NCBI GenBank assembly: GCA_017479705.1
Contig: JAFVCA010000050.1
Location: 3,385 to 67,384, forward strand
Origin: Bacteroidales bacterium
GTDB lineage: Bacteria > Bacteroidota > Bacteroidia > Bacteroidales > P3
Length of the DNA: 64,000 nucleotides
Direction of reading: 5' to 3'
The notes below the pieces were generated by a model. That model was not told the DNA's origin. It did not search any database and was given only the letters and a program-made list of their open reading frames with translations. How positions within the stretch are numbered: the first letter of the stretch is position 1; each line of letters opens with the position of its first letter. Of this stretch, positions 3,285 to 62,149 are shown one piece after another. Made by a program: the position numbers and the translations under genes.

Positions 3285-3299
3285 ATTGTGTTCCTTCCG

Positions 3300-5254: not shown

Positions 5255-5342
5255 CTTTCTGCAAATTATGGGTTGAATGCAAGAATGTGTTAATTAGTCA
5301 GTCATGAGTTACACATTAGCACATTCTCGCATTTCAATAATT

Positions 5343-15958: not shown

Positions 15959-15989
15959 TTTTCAATTTTCACCTTTCAATTTTCAATTC
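15959..15989 (+). repeat. Heptamer array (TTTTCAA-type), left flank of the AT-rich island
   Basis: ttttcaattttcacctttcaattttcaattc. It shares tttcaattttcacctttcaattttcaatt with 26529-26565. Confidence 0.9.
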
Positions 15990-17221: not shown

Positions 17222-17229
17222 TAACATGA

Positions 17230-18177: not shown

Positions 18178-18183
18178 TTAATC

Positions 18184-18408
18184 ATGCTATTGCCAGACAA
18201 TATTCGACCAGAGAACAGTGTATACTACAATGGGGCCTTTGTATTACAAGTACTCCAAAAATCGGGTGATATGCACATGTTTGATTTATACTCAAAAGTT
18301 TCTGAGATTGTACAAATTAGTTTTTCCTTATATTTACTATGTCTTGATTGGCTGTACTTAATCAATGTGGCAAAAATAGAAGGAGAGGAGGTCATATTAT
18401 GTTTATAA
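18184..18408 (+). CDS. ABC-3C middle component (small helical protein)
   Basis: 74 aa. Starts 6 nt after the effector stop and overlaps the ATPase start by 10 nt (ATGTTTATAA). Size and position fit the middle-component family. Confidence 0.55.
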   Translation: MLLPDNIRPENSVYYNGAFVLQVLQKSGDMHMFDLYSKVSEIVQISFSLYLLCLDWLYLINVAKIEGEEVILCL

Positions 18409-20102: not shown

Positions 20103-20116
20103 ATGAAGAAGTATTT

Positions 20117-22941: not shown

Positions 22942-22955
22942 TAACCGATTGGAGT

Positions 22956-23324
22956 ATGGCAAATGAAATAGTGAAAAAAGAGGTTGCGTTGCCAGATTCG
23001 GAACTGCTGACTCTTGCCGATAGGATTGTACGAGTGATTGAAGAAAGCAGATTGGCCTTAGCCATCAGCATCAATGAGACCATGAAGACAACCTATTGGA
23101 GAATAGGGCAGCATATTGTGGAATTTGAGCAGCAAGGCAATGCCCGCGCCAAATATGGGACATCGCTATTGACTAATCTTGCCAGAATACTCAGGGCAGA
23201 AGTGGGACGCGGATACAGTCGACCCAATCTGAACAATATGCGTAAGTTTTACCTGATGTATCCAAATTTTCAGACATCTGACAAATCCGATTCAATATGT
23301 CAGATGTCTGACAAATTAACCTGA
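22956..23324 (+). CDS. DUF1016_N-only ORF (N-terminal fragment of a YhcG-like PDDEXK nuclease)
   Basis: 122 aa. TYWRIGQHIVEFEQQGNARAKYGTSLLTNLARIL...YSRPNLNNMRKFYLMYP is typical of the YhcG N-terminal domain. The C-terminal PD-(D/E)XK half is absent. Confidence 0.6.
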   Translation: MANEIVKKEVALPDSELLTLADRIVRVIEESRLALAISINETMKTTYWRIGQHIVEFEQQGNARAKYGTSLLTNLARILRAEVGRGYSRPNLNNMRKFYLMYPNFQTSDKSDSICQMSDKLT

Positions 23325-23358
23325 TTACGCAAAATGGTGAAGACGATACTGATGTAGT

Positions 23359-25695
23359 ATGGATAAACCTCTTGAAATACCCATCAACAAACCGGAAGGT
23401 GTAAAACTGATAATATACCCTCTGTCATCGAATGCGAAAGTGTTTGAGGAGGAGCAGGCTGATGATTTGGGTGAAGCGAGATGGCAGCTGGTTGAGGGGG
23501 AGGATTATGAGTATGAGTTTCAAGGTGAGCATGGGCCAGCAGTAGGGTACTACTTTAAAGAGCATGAACTTGTTCGCCCATCAAAAAGTACTCCTTCGCG
23601 AGGGTTGATTAAGACAGGCATCTATGTTGGCTGCCTGACTTTGCCTGTTGCCAATCAATCGGGCTTTGAAACGGAAGTGAGCTTTGAGGTGCGTTCCGTA
23701 AAAGTGGATTACAGGGAGGATTATCGAAGCATGCTTCACGACATCACCAGACACTTTACGGATTTGGTAATGATGCAAGGTGCACCTGTCACACAACGGT
23801 TTGAAGTGGATGTCAATGAAGACGGAAAGACGCTATACCAGCAATTTGCATTTATGAGGTCCTTGGTGGACAGCGAAGGGTTTGAAGAAGCCCTGAACAA
23901 GATATTCTACAATCCTATCCATAAGTGGACAGGGACGACCGTAGAGAAAGACATCTGTGCAGTAAAAAGGCTTGGCCGACACGAAATAAAACAGATTGCA
24001 TCCAGCAAGAACCGACTGCCATTAAGTGATGGCCAGGGTATTGAGAGTGTACCACGCAGACTGAATGTTTCCTATAAGAAAGACACTGTCGATGTAGCTG
24101 AAAACCGTTTCGTAAAATATGTATTGCAATCGTTTGTTTCGTTTTGCAGCACCATCCAGCAATGCGACAACGCCAGCCCGAGACTGAAAAACGAGGCTGA
24201 GCTAACAGCCAAGAAACTGACAGGATGGCTTAGCCGCAGTTTCTTCCTTGAGGTGGCTAACCTGCAGGTCATGACACTGAACAGTCCTGCATTGCAAAGG
24301 AAAGACGGCTACAGGGAAGTGTTACAAGCCTGGATGATGTCAAAACTGGCAGCACATATAACGTGGAAAGGCGGCGACAATGTTTATCGGGCTGGAATGC
24401 GTAATGTGGCTGCACTATACGAGTATTGGGTATTCTTCAAGTTGCTTGACATAGTCAAAGAGGCATTCCATCTGGAACTAACAGAAGCAGATGAGAAGAA
24501 GTTGGTAAAAACCGACAAGGACAACATCAATCTTGAACTCAGACAAGGCCGCATGACAATGGTAGGTGGGGAGTTCCATGAAGCCTCCCGCACATTGAAA
24601 GTCAAACTGTATTATAATAGAACTTTCAAGGGGTCAAGTCAGTTATATGGTAGCGGTTCATGGACGACCGACATGCGGCCAGACTACACTTTATCAATTT
24701 GGCCTGGAAATATCAAAGAGACCGAAGCAGAAGAACAAGACCTCATCGTTCATATACATTTTGACGCAAAGTACAAGTTGGACAGAATTCTGCTTAATGA
24801 CAAAGACATCGATGAAATTCATACTTTCAATGATAGTGACGATGAAGACCTGACCGAAGATGAGCTGATTATGAATCAAGAGAAACTTGAGGCGGAAAAA
24901 GGCATTTACAAACGGGTAGATCTGCTTAAGATGCATGCTTACAAAGATGCAATCCGTCGCACCAGCGGGGCATACATTCTTTATCCCGGCACAGAAAACA
25001 AAAGACTCAGAGGTTTTCATGAAGTGTTACCTGGATTGGGAGCGTTCTGTCTCAGTCCAGACAGATTTGAACAAGATTCAAAGGAGATAGAACACTTCTT
25101 GCATGACATATTAGAGCACATGCTCAACAGAGCATCACAGCGTGAGCGTATGGCATATCATACTTATGAAATCCTCAAAGATGAGCCTTTGATGGTTTGT
25201 GAATCCTTGCCAGAGCCATATGGTGATAATCGTAATTTAATTCCGGAGGAGACTTTTGTGTTAATGGGTTCATTTCGCGACGAGAATCATTTGAAGTGGA
25301 TACTCAAAAACAAGATCTATAATACCAGAACAGGGACAAAGAACGGCTCCTTGAGATTGAAACAAGAAATCACAACAGCGAAATATGTCTTACTTCATAG
25401 TGATAGTAAACAACTCATGCTGAGGTTGGGCAACAAAGGTCCTCGAGTGATGTCGAAAGCGGTCTTGGAAAAAATGCCTTATTCTAGTTTGTACTCTCCA
25501 AACTCGGACTATTATGTTGTTTTTGATATCGCTAACGCAGAACCTGAAAAAGAGTTTAAGAATGTCCAATGGAATATCTACAAAATGGGTCAGGACGGGA
25601 TAATAAAACAAGGCCCTTTGAGTGCCGAGCCAGTAGGAGTGTCCTTGGCAACTTTAATGAAATACGTAATAAAAGAATACCCAAACACAGAATAA
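23359..25695 (+). CDS. McrC-like / DUF2357 PD-(D/E)XK restriction nuclease subunit with C-terminal extension
   Basis: 778 aa. Nuclease core MRPDYTLSIW ... HIHFDAKYK ... MHAYKDAIRRTSGAYILYPG follows the McrC-type D..(D/E)xK pattern. The last ~190 aa are unassigned. Confidence 0.7.
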   Translation: MDKPLEIPINKPEGVKLIIYPLSSNAKVFEEEQADDLGEARWQLVEGEDYEYEFQGEHGPAVGYYFKEHELVRPSKSTPSRGLIKTGIYVGCLTLPVANQSGFETEVSFEVRSVKVDYREDYRSMLHDITRHFTDLVMMQGAPVTQRFEVDVNEDGKTLYQQFAFMRSLVDSEGFEEALNKIFYNPIHKWTGTTVEKDICAVKRLGRHEIKQIASSKNRLPLSDGQGIESVPRRLNVSYKKDTVDVAENRFVKYVLQSFVSFCSTIQQCDNASPRLKNEAELTAKKLTGWLSRSFFLEVANLQVMTLNSPALQRKDGYREVLQAWMMSKLAAHITWKGGDNVYRAGMRNVAALYEYWVFFKLLDIVKEAFHLELTEADEKKLVKTDKDNINLELRQGRMTMVGGEFHEASRTLKVKLYYNRTFKGSSQLYGSGSWTTDMRPDYTLSIWPGNIKETEAEEQDLIVHIHFDAKYKLDRILLNDKDIDEIHTFNDSDDEDLTEDELIMNQEKLEAEKGIYKRVDLLKMHAYKDAIRRTSGAYILYPGTENKRLRGFHEVLPGLGAFCLSPDRFEQDSKEIEHFLHDILEHMLNRASQRERMAYHTYEILKDEPLMVCESLPEPYGDNRNLIPEETFVLMGSFRDENHLKWILKNKIYNTRTGTKNGSLRLKQEITTAKYVLLHSDSKQLMLRLGNKGPRVMSKAVLEKMPYSSLYSPNSDYYVVFDIANAEPEKEFKNVQWNIYKMGQDGIIKQGPLSAEPVGVSLATLMKYVIKEYPNTE

Positions 25696-25774: not shown

Positions 25775-26392
25775 ATGACCGACACGATGACACCGGAGCA
25801 GCGGCATCGCTGCATGTCGCACATACGCAGCCGCGACACCAAGCCTGAGCTGCGGGTGCGGCGTTGGCTGTGGAGCCATGGCTACCGCTACCGGCTGAAT
25901 GTGAAGAGCGTGCCGGGCAAGCCGGACATCGTCATGCGGCCTTATCGCACGGCGATATTTGTCAACGGATGCTTTTGGCATGGGCACGGCGTGGAAATTG
26001 AAAATTCAAAATTGAAAAGTGAAAAGGTTGTGGACTCCAGTGCTGCACAGATTGAGAACTCCGCATGCTGCAAGATTCCACAGACCAACCGGGAGTTCTG
26101 GCTCTCGAAGATCAGACGCAACCAGCAGCGCGACCAGCGCAACTATCGCCTTTTGCAGGAGAACGGTTGGCAGGTCATCGTGGTGTGGGAGTGCCAGCTT
26201 ACGCCCTCTACGATAGAACATACCATGCGCGGCGTGGAGCTGTTGCTCAACGAGAATATGCTCGCCCTCTACAGGCACACTCCCGCCACCTACACCCTTG
26301 CTGACGAGCCTCTCCCCCTCGCCGCTGAAGAAATTGAGCGGAGAACCTCCGCGGGTATTAATCTTAATGACTATCCGCATCATTCCGAATAG
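25775..26392 (+). CDS. vsr: Very short patch repair endonuclease Vsr, carrying an in-frame repeat insertion
   Basis: SRDTKPELRVRRWL, FVNGCFWHGH, IPQTNREFWLSKIRRNQQRD, IVVWECQL. GC-rich like the backbone. Confidence 0.9.
   Translation: MTDTMTPEQRHRCMSHIRSRDTKPELRVRRWLWSHGYRYRLNVKSVPGKPDIVMRPYRTAIFVNGCFWHGHGVEIENSKLKSEKVVDSSAAQIENSACCKIPQTNREFWLSKIRRNQQRDQRNYRLLQENGWQVIVVWECQLTPSTIEHTMRGVELLLNENMLALYRHTPATYTLADEPLPLAAEEIERRTSAGINLNDYPHHSE
25994..26026 (+). repeat. Heptamer array (TTGAAAA orientation) inside vsr
   Basis: gaaattgaaaattcaaaattgaaaagtgaaaag, translated as EIENSKLKSEK. Confidence 0.85.
26338..26352 (+). repeat. 15-nt GC hairpin repeat GCGGAGAACCTCCGC (inside the vsr 3' end)
   Basis: Exact copy. 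Translated as ERRTSAG, the same peptide as at the PnuC C-terminus. Confidence 0.9.
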
Positions 26393-26457: not shown

Positions 26458-26528
26458 CTAAGACAGCTATACCATTCGGCGTCCCGGAGAGACGCGACTT
26501 TAACACTTCGGTTCCTTGCGGATAATCG

Positions 26529-26565
26529 TTTCAATTTTCAATTTTCACCTTTCAATTTTCAATTG
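26529..26565 (+). repeat. Heptamer array (TTTTCAA-type), right flank of island + vsr
   Basis: tttcaattttcaattttcacctttcaattttcaattg. Confidence 0.9.
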
Positions 26566-28639: not shown

Positions 28640-28661
28640 CACCATCGTTCCGAGCGGAGGA

Positions 28662-28738
28662 ACTCGTTTAGGGGTGCTGCAACTTGTTGTGGCTGAGATT
28701 ACACCCTCGAACCTGATCCGGATAATGCCGGCGGAGGA
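28662..28738 (+). promoter_or_regulatory. TPP (THI-box) riboswitch
   Basis: AGGGGTGC...GGCTGAGATTACACCCTCGAACCTGATCCGGATAATGCCGGCGGAGGAA matches the TPP aptamer consensus (CUGAGA, ACCUGAUCyGGAUAAUGCCrGCG). Confidence 0.9.
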
Positions 28739-28745
28739 AAAGACT

Positions 28746-31001
28746 ATGAGAACAAACAAATACCTTTGTGGCCGCTATCAATACCGGGCCACCCGTCCCA
28801 ATGCCAAGCAGATGATAGCCTGCTGTGCATTGTCAGCAACCCTATTGTGTGGCATCAGTGCCAATGCTCAGTCGCGTGACACCACGCGCACCCTTGATGA
28901 GGTGATTGTGCAGGATGTGCGCGTCAGCAACAAAGCGCCCCTCACCACCACCACCGTCACTGCCGACCAGCTGCAAGATGCCCGTGGCAGCGTGAGTATC
29001 CCCTACATCCTCGAGACCCAGCCCTCAGTGGTGGCTTCGGGCGAGAACGGCACCGTGGGAGCTACCTCGTTGCGCATCCGTGGTGTGGATGCCAGCCGTA
29101 TTAACGTCAACATCAACGGCATCACACTCAACGACCCTGAAAGCCAGGAGGTCTTCTGGTACAATATCCCCAACCTTGGCGGCATGGCTCACAGCTTCCA
29201 GATTCAGCGCGGTGTGGGTTCGTCCACAGGCGGCAGCCCTGCTTTCGGTGCCGCCATCAACATGCAGACGCTCAACGCCAAGGGCAAACCCTACGGCAGT
29301 GCCGACTTGGGTTTTGGCAGCTGGAACACCCGCCAGTATAGCATCAGCGGCGGGACGGGCATCATGAAGAGTGGCCTCAGTTTCGACTTTGCCTACAGCG
29401 GCTTGAACAGCGACGGCTATGTGCGCGGCGGCGGTGCCGACCAGCAGAGTCTCTTCGGCAGCCTGTCGTGGTATGGCGAAAGAACCCTCATCAAACTCCT
29501 TGCCATCGTCGGCAGTCAGACCACAGGTATCACCTGGGACGGTGCCGACAGCGCACAGCTCAATGCCGACCCCACCTACAACCCCTCCGGCGAGTACTAC
29601 ATGGACGGCAACGTGATGTACTACCCCAAAGAGACCGACAACTACTGGCAGCAGCACTACCAGCTCTACCTCTCCCACCTGCTCACCGACCGCTGGAGCA
29701 TCAAGGGCATTGTCAACTTCACCCACGGCGACGGCTACTATGAGCAGTACAAAGCCGAAAAGAAATACTCCAAGTATGGCATTGAGCAAAGCGGCAAGAC
29801 CGACTTCGTCACCCGTAAGTTGATGGACAACAACAGCATCACCGCCAATCTGGCCGCCAACTACAATGGCGAGAAACTCACCCTCTCGTTCGGCGACAAT
29901 ATGCTTTACTTCAACGGCTACCACTTTGGCAACGTCATCTGGGTGCGCGACACTGCTTGCCACCTCCCCAAGACCTTTGAGTGGTACCGCTACCAAGGCA
30001 CCAAGACGGACAACAGTGTTTACGCCAAGGCCACGTATGACTTCAACCCCAGCCTCAACGCCTATGCCGACCTCCAGCTGCGCACCGTAAACTACAAACT
30101 GCGCGGCATTACGGACGACCTCGACAACCTCGACTTCAACGAGAACTACCTCTTCTTCAACCCCAAGGCCGGTATCAACTACCGCATTGACGACCACCAG
30201 CGCACCTACTTTGTGGCCGGCATCAGCAACCGCGAACCCACCCGCAGCGACATCAAGGATGCCCTTGCCCACGGCGACACCGTCAAGGCCGAGACCATGC
30301 TCGACTTAGAGCTGGGCTACCAGATTGCCCGCAACCGCTGGAGTTTCTCCGCCAACCTCTATGCCATGCTCTACAAAGACCAGCTCACCCCCAACGGCCG
30401 CATCAGCTCCAGTGGCTACTCCCTTATGGAGAACGTGGACCGCAGCTACCGTCTCGGCATCGAGCTGCAAGGCGGCTACCAGATCGCCCGCTGGTTCCGC
30501 ATGGATGCCAACCTCACCCTCAGCACCAACAAGGTGCTCAATTACACCTACAGCCTCTTCAACGACGGCGACAGCGTCGTCCTCAACCCCGACGGCACCT
30601 GGAGCACCCTCGATGTCACCGCCAACACACCGTTAGCCTTCTCGCCCTCCGTCATTGGAGCTGCCATCGCCACCTTCACCCCCTTCAGCGGGGCCAAGTT
30701 GCAGCTCATCGGCAAATATGTAGGCAAGCAGTATGCCGACAACACCGGCCGCGAGTGCTACGCCCTCAACCCCTACTTCCTCCTCAACCTGCGCGCCTCC
30801 TACACCTGGAACCTCCGCAGCGGCAACCAAATCGAGGCCCAGCTCACCGTCAACAACCTGTTAGACCACCGCTACCGCCTCAGCGCCTGGGTGGGCGACT
30901 GGTATGACGAAACCGAAACAGCCCAATACTACTACCACAGCAGAGGCTGGCTCCAGCAGCCCGGCCGCAACTTCATGGCCCGGCTGATCTACAGCTTCTA
31001 A
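28746..31001 (+). CDS. TonB-dependent outer-membrane receptor (thiamine-regulated)
   Basis: The ORF track start at 28629 would read through the riboswitch, so the ATG at 28746 (MRTNKYL) is used. Plug region DEVIVQD...TADQL. Terminal ...ARLIYSF. Confidence 0.85.
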   Translation: MRTNKYLCGRYQYRATRPNAKQMIACCALSATLLCGISANAQSRDTTRTLDEVIVQDVRVSNKAPLTTTTVTADQLQDARGSVSIPYILETQPSVVASGENGTVGATSLRIRGVDASRINVNINGITLNDPESQEVFWYNIPNLGGMAHSFQIQRGVGSSTGGSPAFGAAINMQTLNAKGKPYGSADLGFGSWNTRQYSISGGTGIMKSGLSFDFAYSGLNSDGYVRGGGADQQSLFGSLSWYGERTLIKLLAIVGSQTTGITWDGADSAQLNADPTYNPSGEYYMDGNVMYYPKETDNYWQQHYQLYLSHLLTDRWSIKGIVNFTHGDGYYEQYKAEKKYSKYGIEQSGKTDFVTRKLMDNNSITANLAANYNGEKLTLSFGDNMLYFNGYHFGNVIWVRDTACHLPKTFEWYRYQGTKTDNSVYAKATYDFNPSLNAYADLQLRTVNYKLRGITDDLDNLDFNENYLFFNPKAGINYRIDDHQRTYFVAGISNREPTRSDIKDALAHGDTVKAETMLDLELGYQIARNRWSFSANLYAMLYKDQLTPNGRISSSGYSLMENVDRSYRLGIELQGGYQIARWFRMDANLTLSTNKVLNYTYSLFNDGDSVVLNPDGTWSTLDVTANTPLAFSPSVIGAAIATFTPFSGAKLQLIGKYVGKQYADNTGRECYALNPYFLLNLRASYTWNLRSGNQIEAQLTVNNLLDHRYRLSAWVGDWYDETETAQYYYHSRGWLQQPGRNFMARLIYSF

Positions 31002-31008
31002 TCAAACT

Positions 31009-31073
31009 GAAAGGTGAAAATTGGAATCAGGTTTGCACACGCATTCCAATTTTCACCTTTCACCTTTCACTTT
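31009..31073. repeat. Inverted pair of heptamer-type repeats (hairpin)
   Basis: gaaaggtgaaaattggaat (31009-31027) and attccaattttcacctttc (31043-31061) are exact reverse complements. They are followed by acctttcacttt. Confidence 0.9.
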
Positions 31074-31088
31074 GCGGAGAACCTCCGC
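31074..31088 (+). repeat. GC hairpin repeat GCGGAGAACCTCCGC
   Basis: Exact copy. Confidence 0.9.
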
Positions 31089-31090
31089 GG

Positions 31091-31141
31091 ATGTTATTCG
31101 TGAATATGTTAATGTGTAAATTCGCTAATATGTTAATGTGT
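31091..31141 (-). repeat. Octamer array (TAACACAT/TCACGAAT family, reverse orientation)
   Basis: atgttattcgtgaatatgttaatgtgtaaattcgctaatatgttaatgtgt. Confidence 0.85.
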
Positions 31142-31780
31142 GCGCCCTTAATTACCTGCGGCGGTGCGCCGTTTTCAATTTTCAATTTTCAATTCTCAGT
31201 TTTCAATATTCTTGAAATCATTGGGGCCGTCATAGGTCTTGCCTACATCATCAGCGAATACCGTGCCGACCGTTTCTTCTGGCCGCTCAGCATCCTCATG
31301 TCGCTCTTCTACATCGTCATCGACTTCACCTCCGGCATCTATGCCAACGGGGCCATCTGCTGCTACAACCTGCTCATGTCCATCTATGGGCTATTAGTGT
31401 GGCGCGGGATTGTGCAGAGCAAAGAGCGCGCCGAGCGTCCCGTGGGCTCCTGCCCCCGGCACTATTGGCCCTTCATCGGGGCCGCTGTGGCTGTGCTCTC
31501 CGTGGTGCTGTGGTGGCTGCTCGGCACCCTTGGCGAGAGCCAGTTCCCCTGGTTAGACGGCATCTCCTCAGCCCTCTCCATCGTGGCCATGTGGATGCTC
31601 TCGCAGAAGTATTGGCAGCAATGGATACTCTGGCTCGTGGTCGAACCCCTCATGATACTCCTGTTCTACATCACCGGCAACTACGCCTCGGCGCTCCTCT
31701 ACGTCGTCTTCGAAGTCTTCTGTGTGCTCGGCATCATCCGCTGGCGTCGCCTCGAGCGGAGAACCTCCGCAGGTGTTTAA
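31091..31780 (+). CDS. PnuC/PnuT family vitamin transporter (likely thiamine, given the riboswitch operon)
   Basis: LEIIGAVIGLAYIISEYRADRFFWPLSILMSLFYIVIDFTSGIYANG is typical of PnuC. All candidate ATGs (31091-31136) lie inside repeats, so the start is uncertain. The C-terminal ERRTSAGV comes from the GC hairpin repeat at 31756-31770. Confidence 0.75.
   Translation: MLFVNMLMCKFANMLMCAPLITCGGAPFSIFNFQFSVFNILEIIGAVIGLAYIISEYRADRFFWPLSILMSLFYIVIDFTSGIYANGAICCYNLLMSIYGLLVWRGIVQSKERAERPVGSCPRHYWPFIGAAVAVLSVVLWWLLGTLGESQFPWLDGISSALSIVAMWMLSQKYWQQWILWLVVEPLMILLFYITGNYASALLYVVFEVFCVLGIIRWRRLERRTSAGV
31142..31208 (+). repeat. GC box (gcgcccttaattacctgcggcggtgcgcc) + heptamer array
   Basis: The same GC box + array combination recurs at 45197-45251 and, reversed, at 39893-39940. 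Confidence 0.85.
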
Positions 31781-33151: not shown

Positions 33152-33222
33152 TTTTTGAATTAAAAATTAAAAATTAAAAATTAACACCAGCGGGGGTTCT
33201 CCGCCCTGCGGAGGTTCTCCGC
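33152..33222. repeat. (AAAAATT)n array + two reverse-orientation GC hairpin repeats
   Basis: tttttgaattaaaaattaaaaattaaaaatt, then gcgggggttctccgc (33190-33204) and gcggaggttctccgc (33208-33222). Confidence 0.85.
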
Positions 33223-36246: not shown

Positions 36247-36329
36247 AAATTGAAACACGACTCACACATTAACACAATCAAGCATTAACACATTCAAACA
36301 TTCACGAATTAACACATTCAAATAACATT
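36247..36329 (+). repeat. Heptamer remnant + octamer array (intercistronic cassette)
   Basis: aaattgaaacacgactcacacattaacacaatcaagcattaacacattcaaacattcacgaattaacacattcaaataacatt. Confidence 0.85.
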
Positions 36330-38922: not shown

Positions 38923-39914
38923 CCCAGAAACTGAAGGGCACGGTGGAGGGCGACGAGAATGCCCTGATATGGAAGCCTTGCCGTATTGAGGAGGTGGACG
39001 AGGGCGGCATCACCTTCCTTGCCAACCCCAAGTATACACACTTTATCTATGAACGCAAGGCCGCAGCAATCCTCATCAGCCGCGACTTTGTGCTGGAGCA
39101 TCCGGTGGACGCCACTTTGATTCGTGTGGATAACCCTTACCTCTGTGTGGCCAAGGTGCTGCACATGTTCAATTCTGCCGACCGTCCCAAGCGTGGCCGC
39201 AGCATGCGCAGCAGCATCGACCGCACGGCACGGCTGGGCAAGGGCTGCTATGTGGGGGCCTTCGCAGTGATAGGCCGCAATGTACGCATTGGCAACAATG
39301 TGCAGATTTATCCGCAGGTGTATATCGGCGACCATTGCCAGATTGGCGACAACACTATCCTGTATCCGGGTGTGAAGATTTACCGCGAGTGCCAGGTGGG
39401 GCAGAACTGCATCCTGCACGCGGGTGTGGTGGTGGGAGCCGACGGCTTCGGTTTCGCCCCCAAGGGGGACGGCTCGTACAGCAAGATTGACCAGATAGGC
39501 AATGTGGTGATTGAGGACGATGTGGAGATTGGGGCCAACACGTGTGTGGACCGCGCGACGATGGGTTCCACCATCATCCACCGCGGAGCCAAGATTGACA
39601 ATCTCTGCCAGATAGCCCACAATGTCTCCTTTGGCAGCAACACGGTGATGGCCTCGCAGTCCGGCTGCGCGGGCAGCGGCAAGGTGGGCAACAACTGCGT
39701 CATTGCCGGCCAGGTGGGCATTGTGGGACATATCAAGGTGGGCGACCGGGTGACGATTGCCGCGCAGTCCGGCGTGACGCGCAATGTGGGCGACGACTCC
39801 ACGGTGCTCGGCTCCCCCGCTATGCCAGCCGACAGGCAGAAGAAAATCTTTGTGCTGCAACGCAAGCTGGAGGAGATGTATAATGACATTCAGAAATTGA
39901 AAAGTGAAAAGTGA
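38898..39914 (+). CDS. lpxD: UDP-3-O-acylglucosamine N-acyltransferase
   Basis: 338 aa. Hexapeptide left-handed beta-helix repeats. N-terminal LpxD domain ([12 protein letters not shown]). The last codons KLKSEK and the stop lie in a heptamer array. Confidence 0.9.
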
Positions 39915-39989
39915 AAGCGGCGCACCGCCGCTGGTAATAAAACTCACACATTAACACATTCAAACATTCCCACATTCACAAACACATTC
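39893..39989 (+). repeat. Composite cassette: heptamer array + reversed GC box + octamer array
   Basis: gaaattgaaaagtgaaaagtgaaa / gcggcgcaccgccgctggtaataa / ctcacacattaacacattcaaacattcccacattcacaaacacattc. It ends at the ATG at 39990. Confidence 0.9.
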
Positions 39990-41420: not shown

Positions 41421-42654
41421 GATAATGGCCTTTTTGCTGCTGTCGGCAGCCGTGGGGACAGTCAGCTGCCACGGCCAGAACATTAATTCGCCCGACACGA
41501 AGGGGTACCCTTTTGTGCGCTACGAGAGCAACGAGCTGCGCTACGACAGCACGTCCGCTGCCATGCGCTACCTGCTGAACAAGATGCGGCGGGTGGCCAC
41601 GACGGGGCAGGGGACGGTGAACATTGTGCACATAGGGGGCTCGCATGTGCAGGCCGGCGTGTTCCCCAACCAGGTGCGCGTCCGCATGATGCAGCGGTGG
41701 CCTCAGGCCGTGGGTGGCCGCGGGATGGTTTTCCCCTATTCGGCGGCGGCTAAGTGCAACAATCCCGACGACTACAGGGTGCACTGCAAGGAGAAGGTCG
41801 TCCTGACGCGCAATGTGTACAAGGAGCCCGAATATCCATTGGGACTCTGCGGCATCTCCGTCACGGCCAAGGATGTCCCCACCCGCATACAGATGCTCCT
41901 TACCGACAAGAGCGTCGACTACCGCGTGCAGCACATCGTGGTGCTGGGCTATTCGCCCCAAGGGGTGCTGCCCACACTGGGTTTTGACGGGAACGAGATG
42001 GAGCCCTCATACGTCGACACGGCTACCCACCGCTATGTGTTCAACCTGCTGCAGCCCGTCGACTCTTTCGACATTGTGCTGCCCTGTTCCGAGGGGCAGA
42101 CTTTCACCCTGACGGGTGTCTGTTTAGGCAACCGCCGACCGGGGTTCTCGTATCATTCCATCGGTGTGAACGGTGCTGCGGTGCCGGACTACCTGAAGTG
42201 CAACCTCACCTCCGACCTCCGGCTGCTGCGGCCCGACCTGGTCATCTTCGGCATAGGCATTAACGATGCCCACGAGAAGACTTTCGACACCGTGGTCTTC
42301 AAGAATAATTACCTTGCCCTCTGCGACTCTATCCGCAAGGTCAACCCCAAGTGCGCCTTCATCTTTGTCACCAACAACGACAGCTATCGCAAGACGGGTC
42401 GCCGCCGCTATGCCGTCAACACCAACGGCCCGTTGGCCCGCGATGTGTTCTATCGTCTGGCGGAGCTGACGGGTGGAGCCGTCTGGGACCAGTTTGAGAT
42501 TATGGGTGGTCTCAAATCCATGGAGAAGTGGCAGAAGGCGGGGCTTGCCCAGAAGGACAAAGTCCACTTTACCCGCGCGGGCTACCGCCTAATGGGCGAC
42601 CTCTTCTTCAATGCACTCTACAAGGAACTTTATAAATTGAAAATCGAAAATTGA
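41410..42654 (+). CDS. SGNH-like protein, second copy with degenerate block I
   Basis: Start taken at MRNRIMAFLLL, overlapping the upstream stop. VHIGGSHVQ, FGIGINDAH, DKVHFTRAGY. The C-terminal KLKIEN and the stop lie in a heptamer array. Confidence 0.55.
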   Translation: MRNRIMAFLLLSAAVGTVSCHGQNINSPDTKGYPFVRYESNELRYDSTSAAMRYLLNKMRRVATTGQGTVNIVHIGGSHVQAGVFPNQVRVRMMQRWPQAVGGRGMVFPYSAAAKCNNPDDYRVHCKEKVVLTRNVYKEPEYPLGLCGISVTAKDVPTRIQMLLTDKSVDYRVQHIVVLGYSPQGVLPTLGFDGNEMEPSYVDTATHRYVFNLLQPVDSFDIVLPCSEGQTFTLTGVCLGNRRPGFSYHSIGVNGAAVPDYLKCNLTSDLRLLRPDLVIFGIGINDAHEKTFDTVVFKNNYLALCDSIRKVNPKCAFIFVTNNDSYRKTGRRRYAVNTNGPLARDVFYRLAELTGGAVWDQFEIMGGLKSMEKWQKAGLAQKDKVHFTRAGYRLMGDLFFNALYKELYKLKIEN

Positions 42655-42697
42655 AACACGACTAACACATTCACACATTCACGAATTAACACATTCA
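42634..42697 (+). repeat. Composite cassette: heptamer array + octamer array
   Basis: aaattgaaaatcgaaaattgaaacacgactaacacattcacacattcacgaattaacacattca. Confidence 0.9.
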
Positions 42698-44584: not shown

Positions 44585-44687
44585 GAAAATTAAAAATAAA
44601 AACTGACTAACACATTAACACATTCACGAATTAACACATTCACGAATTGACTAACACATTAACACATTCACGAATTAACACATTCAC
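44585..44687 (+). repeat. Longest octamer array in the window, preceded by an A-rich heptamer-like stretch
   Basis: gaaaattaaaaataaaaactgactaacacattaacacattcacgaattaacacattcacgaattgactaacacattaacacattcacgaattaacacattcac. Confidence 0.9.
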
Positions 44688-45196
44688 CCTCCTCCTCTCC
44701 CTTCTTTGGAATGTGTTGCTGGTCTATCTGCTCTACATGCTGTGCCGGGTGGTATACGTGTGGGAGTTTTGGGACCTCTATGCCGACGGGTGGAGCAACC
44801 TCTCCCTCGGCAACCTCATTGCGGGCGGGCTGCGCTTCGACACCTCCGCCATCCTCTACACCAACACCCTCTACATCCTGCTTGTGCTGCTTCCCCTTCC
44901 GCGCCGTCTCACCGCCTCGCGCCCCTGGCGCATGGCTCTGAAGACACTCTTTGTGGTGGTCAATGCTCTGATGCTCATCCTCAACCTGGTGGACACCGTC
45001 TACTCCCGCTACACCGGGCGGCGCACCACCTGGACCTTCTTCTCCGAGTTCAGCAATGAGGGCAACCTCGGTGACATTGTGGGTGTGGAGCTGCTGAACC
45101 ACTGGTACCTCGTCCTCATCGGGCTTGCCTTCATCGCAGCCCTCATCCTCCTCTACCGCCACCCCCTCACCCCAAGACCGGAATCGGAATCACGCT

Positions 45197-45251
45197 GCGC
45201 CCGTAATCACTACCGGCGGTGCACCCTATTTCAATTTTCAATTTTCAATTT
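45197..45251 (+). repeat. GC box + heptamer array at the LTA-synthase frame break
   Basis: gcgcccgtaatcactaccggcggtgcaccctatttcaattttcaattttcaattt. Compare 31142-31208. Confidence 0.85.
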
Positions 45252-45498
45252 AATAAGTTCCTCGCCCTGCTCGTCTACATCCCCTTAGCCGTTATCGGCA
45301 TGCGCGGGGGAGCCTCCACCGCCATCCGACCCATCACCATCAGCAACGCCAACCAGTACGTCAACCAGCCCTCCGAGGCCGCCATCGTGCTCAACACCCC
45401 CTTCAGCCTGCTGCGCACCATGGGGAAGACCACCTTCGCCGACCCCTGCTACATGCCGGATGCCGAGATGGAAGCCCTCTTCACCCCCCTCCACACCG

Positions 45499-45560
45499 GC
45501 GGAGAACCCCACCAGACAACGACTAACACAATCAAACAATCAAACAATCAAACATTAAAC
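45499..45560 (+). repeat. GC-hairpin-like + octamer-like array, in-frame inside the LTA-synthase linker
   Basis: gcggagaaccccaccagacaacgactaacacaatcaaacaatcaaacaatcaaacattaaac encodes GGEPHQTTTNTIKQSNNQTLN. Confidence 0.75.
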
Positions 45561-47408: not shown

Positions 47409-47502
47409 AAGGCGATAATCATTGAAAGGTGAAAATTGAAAATTGAAATGTGGCTACCATACTGGCGACCCGTTTCAATTTTCAATTTTCACTTTTCAAT
47501 TT
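47405..47502. repeat. Inverted pair of heptamer arrays between convergent genes
   Basis: attgaaaggtgaaaattgaaaattgaaa (47421-47448) pairs with tttcaattttcaattttcacttttcaattt (47473-47502) across a 24-nt spacer. Both flanking stop codons lie in the arrays. Confidence 0.9.
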
Positions 47503-50312: not shown

Positions 50313-50345
50313 GCGGAGAACCTTCGCTGGGCGGAGAACCTCCGC
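50313..50345 (+). repeat. Two tandem GC hairpin repeats in the 5' leader of the 50385 gene
   Basis: gcggagaaccttcgc (50313-50327) and gcggagaacctccgc (50331-50345), downstream of a TAtcTTTG box at 50261-50268. Confidence 0.85.
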
Positions 50346-51530: not shown

Positions 51531-51602
51531 AAATTGAATGTGTTAATTCGTGAATGTGTTAATGTGTTAGTCGATTTGAATGTGTTAATTCGTGAATGTG
51601 TT
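51531..51602 (-). repeat. Octamer array (reverse orientation) in the leader of the HAD gene
   Basis: aaattgaatgtgttaattcgtgaatgtgttaatgtgttagtcgatttgaatgtgttaattcgtgaatgtgtt. Lies downstream of a TAttTTTG box at 51516-51523. Confidence 0.85.
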
Positions 51603-59785: not shown

Positions 59786-62149
59786 AGAAAACCGCTTATA
59801 ATGACAAATAAACCCCATAAAACGCTACTCTGTCTGATTGCCATCCTGGCAATCGGGGCTGCGGGGGTGTTGCTTTTGTGGCGGACGGGGGTGGAGGAGA
59901 GCGTGAAGCGGGAGAGTGCGCGGTTGTTTGATTATGAGTACATCCCCAACCAGAACGTGGACATGGATCGGTGCGAGGCGGCGAGGATGTCGGACTCCAT
60001 TTACAAGGACTTTCGGAAGAAATACCGTTTCCACTACCAAACGGTCGGGATGGCCTCGTTCTCAGACAGCAGCCGCATGATTCTGCTGAGCGATATACCG
60101 CCGCATTTCGAGACGGATTCCATCGCACCCATCTTTGCCGAGTTCACGCACAGGACAGAGCTGCGCAAGCATCCAATAGGCTATGACGGCTACACTACCG
60201 ATATGCTCATCTTGCTCGGCAATGCCACACAGGAGAATTGCGACAGGTTGTTACGGCGACTGAATAGGGAGCTCTTTTTCAGTGAATACAAGCCTACGGT
60301 GATGACATTGCCCGCGGAAGAGAAGCGACGCTATTTCGCCCAAGAGAATATCGACTACCAGATAACGCTGAACGAGTTCAACACCTGGTTTATGGAAGAG
60401 GGCGAGGGGTTTATCCATCTCGACGACACTAACAAGGTTATGACCGTCAGTGACCTTTTCGAGGCTCAGGCACGGGGCGTCTATTTCAGCCAGCAGCCGG
60501 GCTTTGTGGCTTGGGCGGTGGCTAAGAATACGGACATCGCCGCACAGGTGGGCGACATAAGGCAGTTCACCTTGGACGCCGACCTGATACTGGGAGCTTT
60601 GGCCGACAGCAGCACGCTGGTAATTATTGGTCGAGAACGGCAGTCGCCGCTGAATGAACTACCTCCGCTGCAGATAGAAAGCATCTTGTTGTTGGCCTCA
60701 ACTACCGAGAAGGAGCTGTCGCAAAGCTTGGACATCAACGACCTGATGGCCGGCAAGATGAACAACGGGCGCGACTGGTGCCCCACGTACCTGAGCAAGG
60801 AACTGGAGAACACCGAGTTTGGCGACCTGATGACTATCACCGACGTGCTGCTGAAGGACTGGTCGGAACGCGGCACCATACAGGAGGGCTACTACCGCTA
60901 CCCCGAGCCGGGCTACTATCCCTTCGACAAGCCGTTATTCAAGAAGTTAGGGCTGAACGAGCTGGTCTATAATTGGAACACCGCTGGTGCCATGTACGCG
61001 ATTGATTGCAAGAAAAACGATGTCTCCAACACTCAAACATTAACACATTCAAGCAATAACACATTCACCATCTACACCTTAGGCCGCACGGGGTCGCTGC
61101 CGGTGAGCTACTTCAACTCGCAGGAGCGCAGCCAGTCGATAGGCTACCGCTACGAGAGCCAGGCGTATCACTATTTCGCCACCCTCGGCAACACGGACCT
61201 GGCGCGTGTGGTGCAGTACACGGCGCTGTACCAGCTATTTATCGACAACAACATCAGCTATTCGGGCAACACCTATCCTTCCTTCCCGAAAAACAAGCCG
61301 TTCTTACTGTATAAGCCTACCGTTGAATTGCTTGACAAAATTCGTCAGCTGAACGGGGAGGAGATTGACCGATTGGCAGACAGCCTTTCCCGGCGCAGCT
61401 TCATAAACTATCAGAAAGAGAATATCGACAAGCAACTGCGAGAGAATGAGCAGCGGCACAACATCTCTTACACAGAGGAGAATATCGATGCTATCTATCG
61501 CAATGTGTGCCGCGACACCAAGGCAGGTATCGGCAGGAGCATACAAGAGGTCAAGGATATGTTGGGTGGACTCAACGAAGAACAATTCAAGCAGTTGGCA
61601 CGGTATCTTTCTTATCCTCGCGGGGTGAAAATACATGATCGTGAGAGTTACAACACCATGCTTCGCGGACGAAAGGTGAACCAGCTGATGCGCGGGGTGG
61701 GCAAGAATAATCTGGACTTGTTGGGAATGGATTTGAAGGATGTGAAAAACTGGTTTGCCGCCAACCTGAAAGGCAATGCAGGACGATACTTGAAGACCTC
61801 GTCGCTCATCATCACTTACGCAGACCTGTTGACAACTGGCGGGCACAACCTTTCGTCCCGCATCAGTCGCGTGAACTCGATGACTAACTACAAGCGCAGT
61901 CGGGGCAACTATACTCCTACCGACTACGATAGCCCCGCCCAACCGGTTCCGACAGAGGCAAAACCCGTACCGACGACACCTGAAACCACGGGGAAGCCCT
62001 TGGGGAAGAGGACGAGCAAACCAGCTGTGAAACCGACAGGAAAGAGAAAGCCGGCAAGCTCCGCCTCGTCGGGTAAGCCAGCAAGCAACAGTATCCGCCC
62101 CCGAGGCTCAGTCATTTCTTCCGCTCCCCGCAGGACAAGAGGGCTATGA
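59771..62149 (+). CDS. Large membrane-anchored protein of unknown function with basic Pro/Lys-rich tail
   Basis: 792 aa. One N-terminal TM (LLCLIAILAIGAAGVLLLW). No recognisable catalytic motif. C-terminal low-complexity PVPTEAKPVPTTPETTGKPLGKRTSKP. Contains an in-frame octamer repeat. Confidence 0.55.
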   Translation: MKTNRRKPLIMTNKPHKTLLCLIAILAIGAAGVLLLWRTGVEESVKRESARLFDYEYIPNQNVDMDRCEAARMSDSIYKDFRKKYRFHYQTVGMASFSDSSRMILLSDIPPHFETDSIAPIFAEFTHRTELRKHPIGYDGYTTDMLILLGNATQENCDRLLRRLNRELFFSEYKPTVMTLPAEEKRRYFAQENIDYQITLNEFNTWFMEEGEGFIHLDDTNKVMTVSDLFEAQARGVYFSQQPGFVAWAVAKNTDIAAQVGDIRQFTLDADLILGALADSSTLVIIGRERQSPLNELPPLQIESILLLASTTEKELSQSLDINDLMAGKMNNGRDWCPTYLSKELENTEFGDLMTITDVLLKDWSERGTIQEGYYRYPEPGYYPFDKPLFKKLGLNELVYNWNTAGAMYAIDCKKNDVSNTQTLTHSSNNTFTIYTLGRTGSLPVSYFNSQERSQSIGYRYESQAYHYFATLGNTDLARVVQYTALYQLFIDNNISYSGNTYPSFPKNKPFLLYKPTVELLDKIRQLNGEEIDRLADSLSRRSFINYQKENIDKQLRENEQRHNISYTEENIDAIYRNVCRDTKAGIGRSIQEVKDMLGGLNEEQFKQLARYLSYPRGVKIHDRESYNTMLRGRKVNQLMRGVGKNNLDLLGMDLKDVKNWFAANLKGNAGRYLKTSSLIITYADLLTTGGHNLSSRISRVNSMTNYKRSRGNYTPTDYDSPAQPVPTEAKPVPTTPETTGKPLGKRTSKPAVKPTGKRKPASSASSGKPASNSIRPRGSVISSAPRRTRGL
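61028..61068 (+). repeat. Octamer array in-frame inside the 792-aa ORF
   Basis: aacactcaaacattaacacattcaagcaataacacattcac encodes NTQTLTHSSNNTFT. Confidence 0.8.

Follow-up and report, generated by a model that had tools for sequence, protein, structure and literature searches.

Within a stretch of 64,000 nucleotides from a Bacteroidales bacterium (hereafter the window), some 200 nt between a TonB-dependent receptor gene and pnuC are filled with short repeats, which raises the question of what these repeats are, how they came to lie at this junction and what they do to the adjoining genes. A sequence-only reading had proposed a composite system of four repeat families recurring across the window. 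The composite and recurrent nature of the system was borne out by an ordered cassette and by shuffle controls. The comparisons presented below suggest that 31003-31210 is probably a recent lineage-specific insertion at a thiamine-uptake operon junction, derived from three members of a modular mini-repeat family. The family is placed in a narrow clade of uncultured rumen Bacteroidales and, judged from the approximately 100 kb of clade DNA examined, appears to be genome-wide.

Layout of the receptor-pnuC spacer

The spacer is flanked by genes that Pfam assigned to a TonB-dependent receptor (28725..31001, plus strand; Plug and TonB_dep_Rec_b-barrel domains; stop codon TAA at 30999-31001) and a PnuC-family transporter (31091..31780, plus strand; NMN_transporter domain), with a TPP riboswitch upstream at the operon head (28660..28757, plus strand; Rfam RF00059, 60.5 bits versus a gathering score of 54.3). 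In the window, 209 nt separate the receptor stop from the first in-frame pnuC start. All four building blocks described earlier were found in this interval. The first is a heptamer inverted pair, or hairpin element (31008..31062), with arms at 31008-31027 (TGAAAGG TGAAAAT TGGAAT) and 31043-31062 and a 15-nt loop at 31028-31042; the pair is perfect, as had been claimed (100% complementary), but its arms are 20 nt and not 19 nt long. The RNA fold of 31002-31075 reached −28.7 kcal/mol (z = −6.9), and the whole spacer gave z = −4.9. A reverse heptamer array (31051..31073, minus strand; TTTCACC x2.9 on the plus strand, detected by TRF) lengthens the 3′ arm of the hairpin. It is followed by the palindrome GCGGAGAACCTCCGC, a P module with a 6-bp stem and a 3-nt loop (31074..31088, plus strand), and by a reversed O module with an octamer-periodic core (31095..31141, minus strand; TRF period 24 nt, 1.9 copies, AATGTGTT-type units), which matched the octamer pattern and aligned with the O cores of other cassettes. 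A GC box then spans 31142-31170, with the hairpin GCGGCGgtgCGCCG inside it at 31158-31172; the G module GGCGCACCGCCGCAGGTAAT (31151..31170, minus strand) combines a GC hairpin with a GGTAAT tail. The last block is a reverse heptamer array (31172..31211, minus strand; TRF), read as (TTTTCAA) x5.7 on the plus strand. The focal site consists of the heptamer hairpin, one P module and one reversed cassette.

An intrinsic-terminator consensus scan of the plus strand flagged 31071-31091, which includes the terminator-like P module, and 31158-31172, where the hairpin is followed by TTTCAATTTT; the hairpins are followed by interrupted U-tracts (UUUUCAAUUUUCAA), and the latter of the two sites falls within the predicted pnuC reading frame. 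A function of P as a general terminator was ruled out, as P often lies within ORFs.

The pnuC frame is open from 31004, and five out of five spacer ATGs belong to it; four of them (31106, 31112, 31130 and 31136) lie within the reversed O module and the fifth, 31091, just upstream. Database gene calls gave proteins of 229 and 214 aa, with 31091 and 31136 chosen as the respective start codons, the longer ORF including a repeat-derived N-terminal extension. The conserved core of pnuC begins near 31199-31211, and the last units of the 31172-31211 heptamer array encode the conserved PnuC N-terminus (NFQFSVFNILEIIG, compared with MNFQLSFIDIIG in the relative L007 and MEFSILNTQFSIIEIVG in L006). The ancestral ATG is gone in the window, and in-frame ATGs are present only in or just upstream of the reversed octamer array. 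Translation probably extends over the 3′ part of the spacer, which is hence not purely intergenic, contrary to its earlier description. The heptamer tract sits between the ATGs and the pnuC core, and its 7-nt unit is not a multiple of three. At the opposite end of the gene, another P module (31756..31770, plus strand) supplies the last pnuC codons, with the stop codon in its GGTGTTTAA tail; the protein tail ERRTSAGV* comes from this module, and the pnuC ends of relatives differ.

The suggestion that the repeats match no described family was upheld by every search performed. At the gathering threshold, Rfam detected only tRNAs and the TPP riboswitch in the whole window and matched no repeat, while an E-value scan of the spacer returned sub-threshold hairpin noise (at most 25 bits versus cut-offs of 48-119). 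An exact-sequence literature search with the repeat strings retrieved one irrelevant C. elegans paper, and no description of these modules was found in the literature on Bacteroidales or Prevotella repeats. An assembly artefact is not the explanation either: the focal spacer was identical in all 12 contigs that carry it, which came from several samples.

A modular repeat family across the window

The blocks of the four proposed families are real, but they represent three module types in an ordered cassette, namely heptamer arrays (H), an octamer-periodic core of ~40 nt (O) and, as P and G, small GC hairpins that carry a GGTAWT tail. The repeat units are TTGAAAA/GTGAAAG and ACACATTN, and the window holds the ordered cassette H-(G)-O in five copies. 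The P module is a perfect palindrome of 15 nt, flanked by GAG, TTG or GGG on one side and NGGTRTT on the other, with no GTAG head; there were five exact copies and two with one mismatch, and copies within genes keep a constant codon phase (ERRTSAG or NTxGGSP). In comparison to dinucleotide-preserving shuffles, the modules were strongly over-represented: the heptamer triplet (21 matches versus 0.00 expected), the octamer pattern (19 versus 0.00), the P 15-mer with at most two mismatches (8 versus 0.10) and the GC box or G module (3 versus 0.05). TRF detected 12 heptamer and 9 octamer arrays in the window, and period-7/8 arrays reached 2.5 per 10 kb, versus 0.30 per 10 kb in outgroup loci. A total of 29 modules were counted in the 64 kb. 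They lay mainly at gene boundaries within the window, and 19 were non-coding, against a non-coding background of 11% (binomial P = 7e-12). Their orientation relative to transcription (approximately nine forward to four reverse) was not significantly biased. Element length ranged from ~20 to 125 nt, and module combinations varied.

Each of the 16 further sites named in the sequence-only reading (15.96-61.05 kb) carries one or more of the blocks, with 0-0.1 matches expected by chance, and a site at 5.28-5.34 kb can be added to them. At the additional site, O-type arrays form an inverted pair in the gap between two genes of the minus strand (5277..5338; −22.8 kcal/mol, z = −5.6). Convergent genes are separated at 47421..47502 by an inverted pair of heptamer arrays whose right arm includes the stop codon of comEC (−41.1 kcal/mol, z = −9.8). 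The inverted pairs folded with z values of −5.6 to −9.8, whereas forward cassettes were unstructured. The forward H(1 unit)-ACACGAC-O cassette at 36250..36322 (plus strand; −1.0 kcal/mol) ends 15 nt before the ATG of a TPR gene. In the forward H-G-O cassette at 39894..39989 (plus strand), the lpxD stop falls in the heptamer array and O abuts the next ATG. The forward H-ACACGAC-O cassette at 42630..42697 (plus strand) holds the stop of the second GDSL gene (42652-42654) in its heptamer array; its RNA fold was −0.6 kcal/mol, and 196 of 200 shuffles folded at least as well. At 44588..44687 (plus strand), between MBOAT and LtaS-like genes, a degenerate H array precedes a 44-nt tandem duplication of the O core (TRF period 44, 100% identity). 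Forward O cores end 0-30 nt before start codons at four sites (36322, 39989, 42697 and 44687), and they are G-poor and essentially unstructured as RNA, like native Bacteroidota leaders.

Other gene-boundary sites include a heptamer array in a divergent intergenic region (15959..15988, minus strand; TRF), a heptamer array in the gap between vsr and a cupin/CMD gene, where two same-strain contigs end (26528..26564, minus strand; TRF), and, immediately before the purD promoter-like TATCTTTG, an (AATTAAA) x3.9 array with two P modules after it (33158..33222). The gene that starts at 50385 has two tandem P modules in its putative 5′ leader (50313..50345, plus strand), and reverse O arrays lie just downstream of a Bacteroidota-type promoter motif (51535..51602, minus strand). 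The two O arrays at 44617-44686 and 51535-51602 point in opposite directions and share 96% identity across 70 nt.

Modules are also tolerated in frame within vsr, rlmN and the LtaS-like gene, as inserts of 20-115 nt. The array in vsr (25991..26026, plus strand; TRF) splits the alignment to PDB 1cw0, with 26 aa replacing 3; the unit whose TGA would be in frame reads TTCAAAA and lacks the TGA. A P module in the C-terminal tail of the same gene (26338..26352, plus strand) is translated as ERRTSAG. The LtaS/sulfatase-family gene carries a G module with a reverse heptamer array (45206..45255, minus strand), which has one unit fewer than in seven other contigs, and the octamer array ACAATCAA x3.4 in frame in its linker (45522..45560, plus strand; TRF). 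An O-type array is in frame at 61029..61067 (plus strand) within ORF 59771-62149 (NTQTLTHSSNNTFT). Programmed frameshifting or ribosomal bypass at the intragenic copies was unnecessary, as all of them are open in frame. It follows from the sequence itself that forward heptamer arrays of at least three units contain TGA in all three frames and that the forward O core contains TAA in two of the three frames. In reverse orientation, heptamer arrays leave every frame open, and the O array gives in-phase ATGs.

The modules are not restricted to the window, since P, heptamer and octamer modules were also found on non-overlapping metagenome contigs from other studies. Short same-strain contigs break within arrays. 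In the relative L107, a 400-nt interval holds two closely similar elements, each with a GC-rich core flanked by inverted heptamer arrays; one copy is intergenic and the other lies within rlmN. Viral contigs gave no match to the O core or to P with its tail, and hence there was no sign of phage origin.

Turnover, length changes and the origin of the spacer

TonB-dependent receptor orthologues were present in L005-L010 and L109-L111, and the distance from the receptor stop to the pnuC start was 0-75 nt in ten related genomes; in L008-L010 the two codons abut as TAAATG. Because orthologous spacers measure 0-75 nt versus 209 nt in the window, the spacer can be taken to be a lineage-specific insertion of ~170-200 nt. 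The site at 36250-36322 provided the one clean filled/empty pair, in comparison to L110 and L111, with at most an ambiguous 1-3 nt (T)AA as a target-site duplication. At 33158-33222, the 92% relative L108 has inverted octamer arrays instead, and L109-L111 have no element at all. Different elements at the same site were seen between the window and L108 and also in L085, L095 and L107. Relatives at 76-83% PurD identity lacked the repeat elements at the orthologous positions, and relatives bear other 7-11-nt arrays instead of H, O and P. The H, O and P sequences were absent from 80 PurD-anchored reference-genome loci, save for isolated TTGAAAA-type arrays (L011, L064 and L075), and they are therefore clade-specific at this level of comparison. 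The modules are multi-copy, lie mainly at gene boundaries, turn over quickly between close relatives and are tolerated in frame.

Whole units were also gained or lost between otherwise identical genomes, as replication slippage would give. Over ~22 kb, the sole difference of L113 and L115 from the window was +7 nt at 45228, and L114 differed by +7 nt, −16 nt at 45528 and one SNP. Both tracts concerned (7-nt units, 45228-45255; 8-nt units, 45522-45560) lie inside the LtaS-like gene, and neither unit is a multiple of three. The one heptamer fewer in the window frameshifts this gene, as do the two missing octamer units (16 nt) in sample L114. When one heptamer was added in silico, the two window ORFs were joined, and the product was the database protein P0121 (six contigs); P0121 and P0241 represent intact LtaS-like proteins, versus the split P0242 and P0243. 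An exact-sequence look-up of the two split LtaS ORFs of the window found neither on record, so the broken allele of the window stands without independent confirmation. The 7-nt and 16-nt differences are between assemblies rather than reads, but at an array length of 20-40 nt they are unlikely to come from the assembler. The frame-switching whole-unit polymorphism of the LtaS-like gene was not seen at the focal pnuC tract, for which the 12 contigs showed no length variation and only two start-codon calls on a single sequence.

From these data a course of events at the focal junction can be proposed. The insertion would have parted an ancestral junction in which the receptor stop and the pnuC start abutted or lay at most 75 nt apart, as in relatives. 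Translation of the receptor would end at its own TAA, followed by the hairpin of −29 kcal/mol. With the ancestral ATG lost, translation of PnuC would start at the ATGs of the reversed octamer array and run on across the GC box and the TTTTCAA tract, adding an N-terminal extension of 25-40 aa. Gain or loss of one heptamer is predicted to switch pnuC off, although the focal tract was invariant in 12 contigs. PnuC output would be decoupled from that of the receptor and probably lowered relative to it, with a net effect that is likely neutral to mildly regulatory. As to dispersal, we favour, speculatively, microhomology-seeded recombination or template switching, with fold-back copying for the inverted pairs.

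Several other explanations were weighed against this one. The modules could be non-autonomous, MITE- or REP-like transposable elements moved by a transposase encoded elsewhere, with slippage only altering inserted copies; we consider this unlikely. The transposase would recognise the heptamer-array inverted ends or the P and G hairpins. The L107 pair with its inverted ends, the 96% identity of the two O arrays, which goes beyond slippage alone, the clean insertion at 36250-36322 and the stop-codon-proximal hotspots that hold different elements would all fit such mobility. However, the sole clean filled/empty pair offers no clear target-site duplication, element length and module combinations are highly variable, and the GTAG-type head typical of REP elements is absent from P. 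Among the ~58 ORFs of the 64-kb window, none encodes a transposase, RAYT, integrase or reverse transcriptase, which is weak evidence, as the gene could be elsewhere in the genome. The chance that the arrays are instead selected cis-regulatory sites, tandemly binding a single-strand-binding or nucleoid protein (S1, Csp or Csr type) on mRNA or DNA as a post-transcriptional regulon, appears slight. Such sites would agree with the G-poor, unstructured O cores in front of start codons, with the same units at many loci and with a heptamer period that fits the one-protein-per-heptamer binding reported for CspB (PMC4679880). Yet relatives at 76-83% PurD identity have no such element at the orthologous positions and the 92% relative has different ones in their place, and conserved regulation of these genes is therefore unlikely; moreover, the elements occur in both orientations, some copies are in coding regions, and the flanking genes have no common function.

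A role of P, with or without heptamers, as a DNA uptake sequence for transformation, resembling the gene-end hairpins of Neisseria, seems very improbable. The window does encode a ComEC homologue (47482-49425), and P is over-represented with a constant codon phase within genes, but this would leave the heptamer and octamer arrays and their whole-unit length changes unexplained. Known DNA uptake sequences are asymmetric 9-12-mers that are taken up by preference, occur approximately once per kb and are found within coding regions; P, in contrast, is palindromic and occurs approximately once per 9 kb. Chance low-complexity sequence or misassembly, which the AT-rich, short arrays and their metagenomic source might have invited, has already been refuted and can be given practically no weight: 3-21 matches were observed where shuffles expect 0-0.1, 12 independently assembled contigs agree, and the modules recur in the metagenomes of other studies. 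Insertion of members of a slippage-prone repeat family is thus the account that we retain for the spacer.

Wider meaning and comparison with known systems

A broader reading is advanced only tentatively, and we would not expect it to hold in full: Bacteroidales, and among them the Segatella copri complex, may carry a class of self-renewing 7-8 nt arrays that has gone unrecognised; the arrays, often inverted, would repeatedly colonise the flanks of stop and start codons, carry punctuation and switch surface and transport genes by slippage. On that reading, unit sequences would vary by species or locus, with the rumen clade representing a high-copy modular family. Copies inside genes would be translated, and the punctuation would comprise forward stops, reverse ATGs or open frames. 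If this were true, a dense repeat system in common rumen and gut bacteria would be remodelling gene junctions, as in the replaced gene start of the vitamin B1 transporter, and putting extra peptide segments into the conserved enzymes Vsr and RlmN. Through slippage-prone tracts, genomes that are otherwise identical would differ in whether a cell-envelope modification gene is intact or broken, and simple-sequence-repeat phase variation would join a Bacteroidales repertoire in which phase variation is known mainly as invertase-driven. The arrays would also account for assemblies fragmenting at gene boundaries. For bacteria without Shine-Dalgarno-dependent initiation, they would provide compact natural cassettes for translation initiation studies, each combining stops in all three frames, in some cases a hairpin, and a leader that is G-poor and unstructured. 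An excess of heptamer tandem repeats has been reported in prokaryotes, with the heptamer in three copies being the most over-represented tandem-repeat class by habitat group (PMC4060949). The present case would offer a tractable example of it, in which close relatives show sites filled, empty or replaced. To our knowledge, this excess is still without an explanation.

Among known systems, cyanobacterial STRR are genome-wide heptamer arrays. The units described here are indeed short (7-8 nt), as had been emphasised, but there is precedent in the TAACTGA repeats, genome-wide heptamer arrays of Beggiatoaceae for which a post-transcriptional regulon was proposed (PMC4679880). With this heptamer direct-repeat class the modules share tandem 7-nt units, repeated two to six times or more at numerous loci that are mostly intergenic, forward stop codons with a translatable reverse strand, a frequent position near start codons and a sporadic, lineage-specific distribution; units of 5-11 nt in at least three tandem copies were found here at many loci and beyond chance. 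They differ in their units (TTGAAAA/GTGAAAG rather than TAACTGA, CCCCAGT, TTGGTCA or CAACAGT), in the fixed order of the arrays with a 40-nt octamer core and GC hairpins, in the frequent inverted pairs, in the documented frame-switching unit-length polymorphism and in the rumen Bacteroidales host.

REP/BIME elements of enterobacteria and pseudomonads are small palindromes in composite mosaics between co-transcribed or convergent genes, and their hairpins, where they follow stop codons, could make the upstream mRNA more stable or reduce read-through. The modules resemble them as small palindromic units in composite mosaics. The earlier statement that the present repeats are denser holds as far as the module count goes, but REP/BIME is a poor comparison, as the modules are not strictly extragenic and have copies in vsr, pnuC, rlmN and the LtaS-like gene. 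Furthermore, P, a perfect palindrome of 15 nt, is shorter than the imperfectly palindromic REP unit of 20-40 nt and lacks the conserved GT(A/G)G head, most of the sequence is tandem array rather than palindrome, and no RAYT (IS200/IS605-like Y1 transposase) is encoded among the ~58 window ORFs. Inverted array ends at 31008-31062, 47421-47502, 5277-5338 and in L107 recall MITEs, whereas single-orientation cassettes lack them, the copies (~20 to 125 nt) are not homogeneous, and the window holds no autonomous partner.

Rickettsia palindromic elements (RPE) are 100-150 nt long, fixed in sequence and in frame in conserved protein genes. The in-frame inserts tolerated as extra peptide in vsr, rlmN and the LtaS-like gene are similar, unlike RPE in being 20-115 nt long, built of 7/8-nt units and variable in length. 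The simple-sequence-repeat contingency loci of Haemophilus, Neisseria and Campylobacter (for example PMC11868660, a review) are phase-variable and likewise involve non-triplet tracts in an ORF, whole-unit change of which shifts the frame of a cell-surface modification gene; the tracts here have 3-6 units of 7-8 nt instead of 1-5 nt, and they belong to a dispersed family. The pneumococcal BOX elements, boxA-(boxB)n-boxC (Croucher 2011, PMC3049150), are modular interspersed repeats with a variable number of internal units, intergenic and non-coding, that form stable structures, and they are comparable in this modularity. BOX is unrelated in sequence, and the present units are 7-8 nt, with some copies translated in frame. 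BOX modules are 45-59 nt long. The elements are best read as a new family of interspersed repeats that is prone to slippage and akin to cyanobacterial STRR, the TAACTGA repeats, BOX and RPE.

The receptor-pnuC spacer

All four elements that a sequence-only reading had placed at 31003-31210, between the TonB-dependent receptor gene (28725-31001) and pnuC, were recovered by sequence reading and repeat mapping. The inverted pair of heptamer-type repeats was perfect, as claimed, and measured 20 nt instead of 19 (31008-27 and 31043-62, 15-nt loop), with the right arm continuing as (TTTCACC) x2.9. The remaining elements were a 15-nt palindrome, GCGGAGAACCTCCGC (module P; 31074-88), an octamer-based array in reverse orientation with a 24-nt period (31095-141) and a GC box with a hairpin, GCGGCGgtgCGCCG (31158-72), directly followed by (TTTTCAA) x5.7 up to 31211. 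The entire spacer, folded as plus-strand RNA, reached -68.7 kcal/mol (z = -4.9). Because an ordered cassette emerges from the alignment of copies, the focal region resolves into a heptamer hairpin element, a single P and a cassette in reversed orientation.

The receptor gene follows a TPP riboswitch (Rfam) and precedes a PnuC-family transporter gene (Pfam), which together form a predicted thiamine-uptake operon, and the spacer is an insertion into it. The distance from the receptor stop to the first in-frame pnuC start was 0-75 nt in ten related loci (L005-L010, L109-L111) versus 209 nt in the window, and the two codons adjoin as TAAATG in L008-L010. The window sequence NFQFSVFNILEIIG aligned with the conserved PnuC N-terminus (MNFQLSFIDIIG in L007; MNTFEIIG in L109), and the last heptamer units of the spacer are therefore coding; the spacer thus lies between the two genes, as described, but is not intergenic to its end. 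The ancestral pnuC ATG has been lost in the window, and the pnuC frame is the single open frame from 31004 onward. All five spacer ATGs (31091, 31106, 31112, 31130 and 31136) are in this frame, four inside the reversed octamer array and one immediately upstream of it, and gene callers chose 31091 or 31136 as the pnuC start. At this locus, the mini-repeats would have uncoupled the receptor gene from pnuC, put a strong hairpin downstream of the former and forced PnuC to initiate at repeat-borne ATGs. In L108, a 92% relative (1-560, reverse-complement orientation), pnuC lacks its N-terminal half and adjoins a different upstream gene, and its 3' end leads directly into an octamer array in reverse orientation; repeat elements adjoin this rearrangement.

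Module anatomy and translational signals

The same building blocks were present at all 16 further sites listed in the sequence-only reading and at one additional site (5.28-5.34 kb). When dinucleotide-preserving shuffles were used as the chance expectation, observed versus expected matches were 21 versus 0.00 for the heptamer triplet, 19 versus 0.00 for the octamer pattern, 8 versus 0.10 for the 15-mer palindrome and 3 versus 0.05 for the GC box. The 29 modules of the window comprise 1,060 bp (1.7%), and 75% of their sequence falls in the non-coding 11% of the window (binomial P = 7e-12). Aligning copies revealed a cassette that opens with a heptamer array (AAATTGAAAA)n and closes with an O core of approximately 40 nt (GACTAACACATTAACACATTCACGAATTAACACATTCA) with 8-nt periodicity; between the two stands either module G (a 23-nt GC hairpin carrying a GGTAAT tail) or ACACGAC, a short linker. 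The heptamer array preceded the O core in all five cassettes of the window (31211-31095 on the minus strand, 36250-36322, 39894-39989, 42630-42697 and 44588-44687). G is built like P (consensus GAGCGGAGAACCTCCGCNGGTRTTAAT): each has a 6-bp stem, a 3-nt loop and a GGTAWT tail. The O core at 44604-44687 is a perfect 44-nt tandem duplication (100% identity, 1.9 copies), therefore indicating a very recent duplication event. Two structural classes were distinguished on folding. Inverted array pairs formed long hairpins (47415-47505, -41 kcal/mol, z = -9.8; 31002-31075, -28.7 kcal/mol, z = -6.9; 5268-5342, -22.8 kcal/mol, z = -5.6), and forward cassettes ahead of start codons were nearly unstructured (-1.0 and -0.6 kcal/mol over 86-96 nt) and low in G, as are the native leaders of relatives.

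Read directly from the sequence, the modules carry translational punctuation. With three or more TTGAAAA units, each of the three frames contains a TGA, and two frames of the forward O core contain a TAA. Every frame of (TTTTCAA)n is open, and the reversed O array is a source of ATGs, all kept in one phase because their spacings are 6 nt and 24 nt. The upstream-gene stop codon lay within or adjoining a forward heptamer array at six genes, namely lpxD (39912-14), the second GDSL gene (42652-54), the MBOAT gene (44582-84), a 174-aa gene (47406-08), comEC (47482-84) and the receptor gene (30999-31001), and the next start codon followed the end of the forward O core by 0-30 nt.

Copies inside genes and unit-length polymorphism

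Precisely at its heptamer array, Vsr has 26 residues versus 3 in E. coli Vsr. In rlmN of three related metagenome species (L085 2544-2690; L107 4597-4770 and L095 232-400, both minus strand), an in-frame heptamer inverted element forms an insert of 29-38 aa, whose internal sequence is unlike in each species; a P module (LNT[SG]GGSP) is also in frame, directly upstream of the radical-SAM cysteine motif. Intragenic heptamers with a would-be in-frame TGA are changed, to TTCAAAA in vsr and to TTCAGAA in L085 rlmN. P reads as ERRTSAG in the pnuC and vsr tails and, on the other strand, as NTxGGSP in rlmN. Within ORFs, P kept one codon phase (sense ERRTSAG[IV], antisense NTxGGSP) at 26338 and 31756 in the window and in the compared loci L098 (816), L092/L093 and L103 (5863), although a second frame lacks stop codons as well. 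The vsr gene, with two mini-repeats, adjoins a low-GC island (34-45% GC; 16142-25695) from which mini-repeats are absent. With genes for an AAA_15/AbiEii-like ATPase, an SMEK/ABC-3C protein, a DUF2326 protein, a Dcm methylase, a DUF1016 protein and a DUF2357/PD-(D/E)XK nuclease, this stretch resembles a defence island. Elsewhere in the window, 368 nt outside the ATG-started ORF map (14211-14578; 59% GC, coding-like) may extend the Metallophos gene (14579-15445) upstream or represent a pseudogene, and three consecutive tRNA genes lie on the minus strand at 3211-3512.

An LtaS/sulfatase-family gene (44716-46694), clustered with lpxD, two GDSL genes and the MBOAT gene, contains a heptamer tract (45228-45255) and an octamer tract (45522-45560). 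In the window it is frameshifted and split within the reverse heptamer array by the lack of one heptamer. Adding one TTTTCAA in silico fused the two parts into a protein that matches P0121, a database protein present on six contigs, at 100% identity, and the gene is intact in seven contigs. Compared assembly with assembly rather than by reads, the near-identical L113 and L115 differed from the window over ~22 kb solely by one 7-nt unit. L114, from another study (sample ERZ27256837), contains the extra heptamer and one SNP. At 45528 it is two octamers (16 nt) short, and the gene is split there, at the second tract. Two whole-unit indels versus one SNP were therefore counted over the compared region, both frameshifting this one surface-modification gene, which reads as a signature of slippage-prone contingency tracts and makes the gene a candidate for phase variation. 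No length variation was found across the available samples in any other array, including the focal one.

Distribution, origin and comparison with known systems

The window DNA was also found in 12 ruminant-metagenome contigs and one NCBI MAG labelled Bacteroidales; T9SS sorting domains and TAnnTTTG promoter motifs identified by reading the sequence place it in the Bacteroidota, and the closest species-representative genome is RUG348 (uncultured rumen Bacteroidales, PurD identity 76%). The repeats are not restricted to the window, as a metagenome scan detected P with its tail on 23 contigs, none overlapping it, of which approximately eight also carried TTGAAAA/TTGAGAA arrays and ACACATT octamers (1.5-12 arrays per 10 kb). 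Contigs of the same strain and of the strain's closest relatives terminate within arrays (L003 and L004, with short same-strain contigs ending at 26531, 26559, 36276 and 39922 of the window; P0001-P0003 contigs of 2-5 kb), and short-read assemblies of these organisms are therefore broken up by the repeats.

Elements were absent from orthologous sites in relatives at 76-83% PurD identity. The purD-pth spacer holds inverted octamer arrays in L108 versus (AATTAAA)n and two P in the window, and the interval from the PBP1A stop to the rlmN start contains a distinct inverted-array element in each of L085, L095 and L107. Two other relatives, L006 and L010, have their own 7- and 11-nt arrays. In L006 (red-deer rumen MAG), the 1-kb divergent purD-pth spacer (reverse complement ~11800-12150) includes inverted 11-nt-unit arrays of the TTCTCCAACAG and TTCTCCGACAN types and several differing heptamer arrays. 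In members of the Segatella copri complex, heptamer arrays lie immediately 3' of the purD stop, several as inverted pairs, with species-specific units (AGTTAAT, AATGTTG, TAGTGAT, AGTGAAG, ATTTAAC). They occur at ~11267-11400 of L041, L048, L061, L062, L065 and L042 (folding of the L048 element gave -44 kcal/mol, z = -9.1), and the site is empty, with a 7-28 nt spacer, in the sister species L045, L047 and L063.

The evidence best supports a new family of modular interspersed mini-repeats that is specific to this clade. Its modules would lengthen and shorten through slippage, and the stop and start signals that come with them would explain why they are tolerated. The main rival, MITE-like dispersal of copies by a transposase, draws on distant O copies that are 96% identical over 70 nt and on the duplicated core-bearing element in L107, but no transposase gene is encoded within the window. 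A binding-site regulon, a DNA uptake sequence or an artefact would each be a less likely explanation than the mini-repeat family.

In line with the initial impression that the repeats belong to no described family, Rfam and the searched literature contained no match to the system. Judged by defining features, the system qualifies neither as REP/BIME nor as a standard MITE. It is valuable chiefly because it combines, in a Bacteroidales, a cassette of fixed order, modules with translational punctuation, in-frame colonisation of housekeeping genes and a documented polymorphism that switches the reading frame. The described heptamer families have no unit sequence in common with it. In behaviour, the modules resemble heptamer repeats of the STRR (cyanobacterial) and TAACTGA kinds (PMC4679880), REP/BIME mosaics, classical SSR contingency loci and BOX modular elements (PMC3049150), and their in-frame insertions resemble the Rickettsia RPEs.
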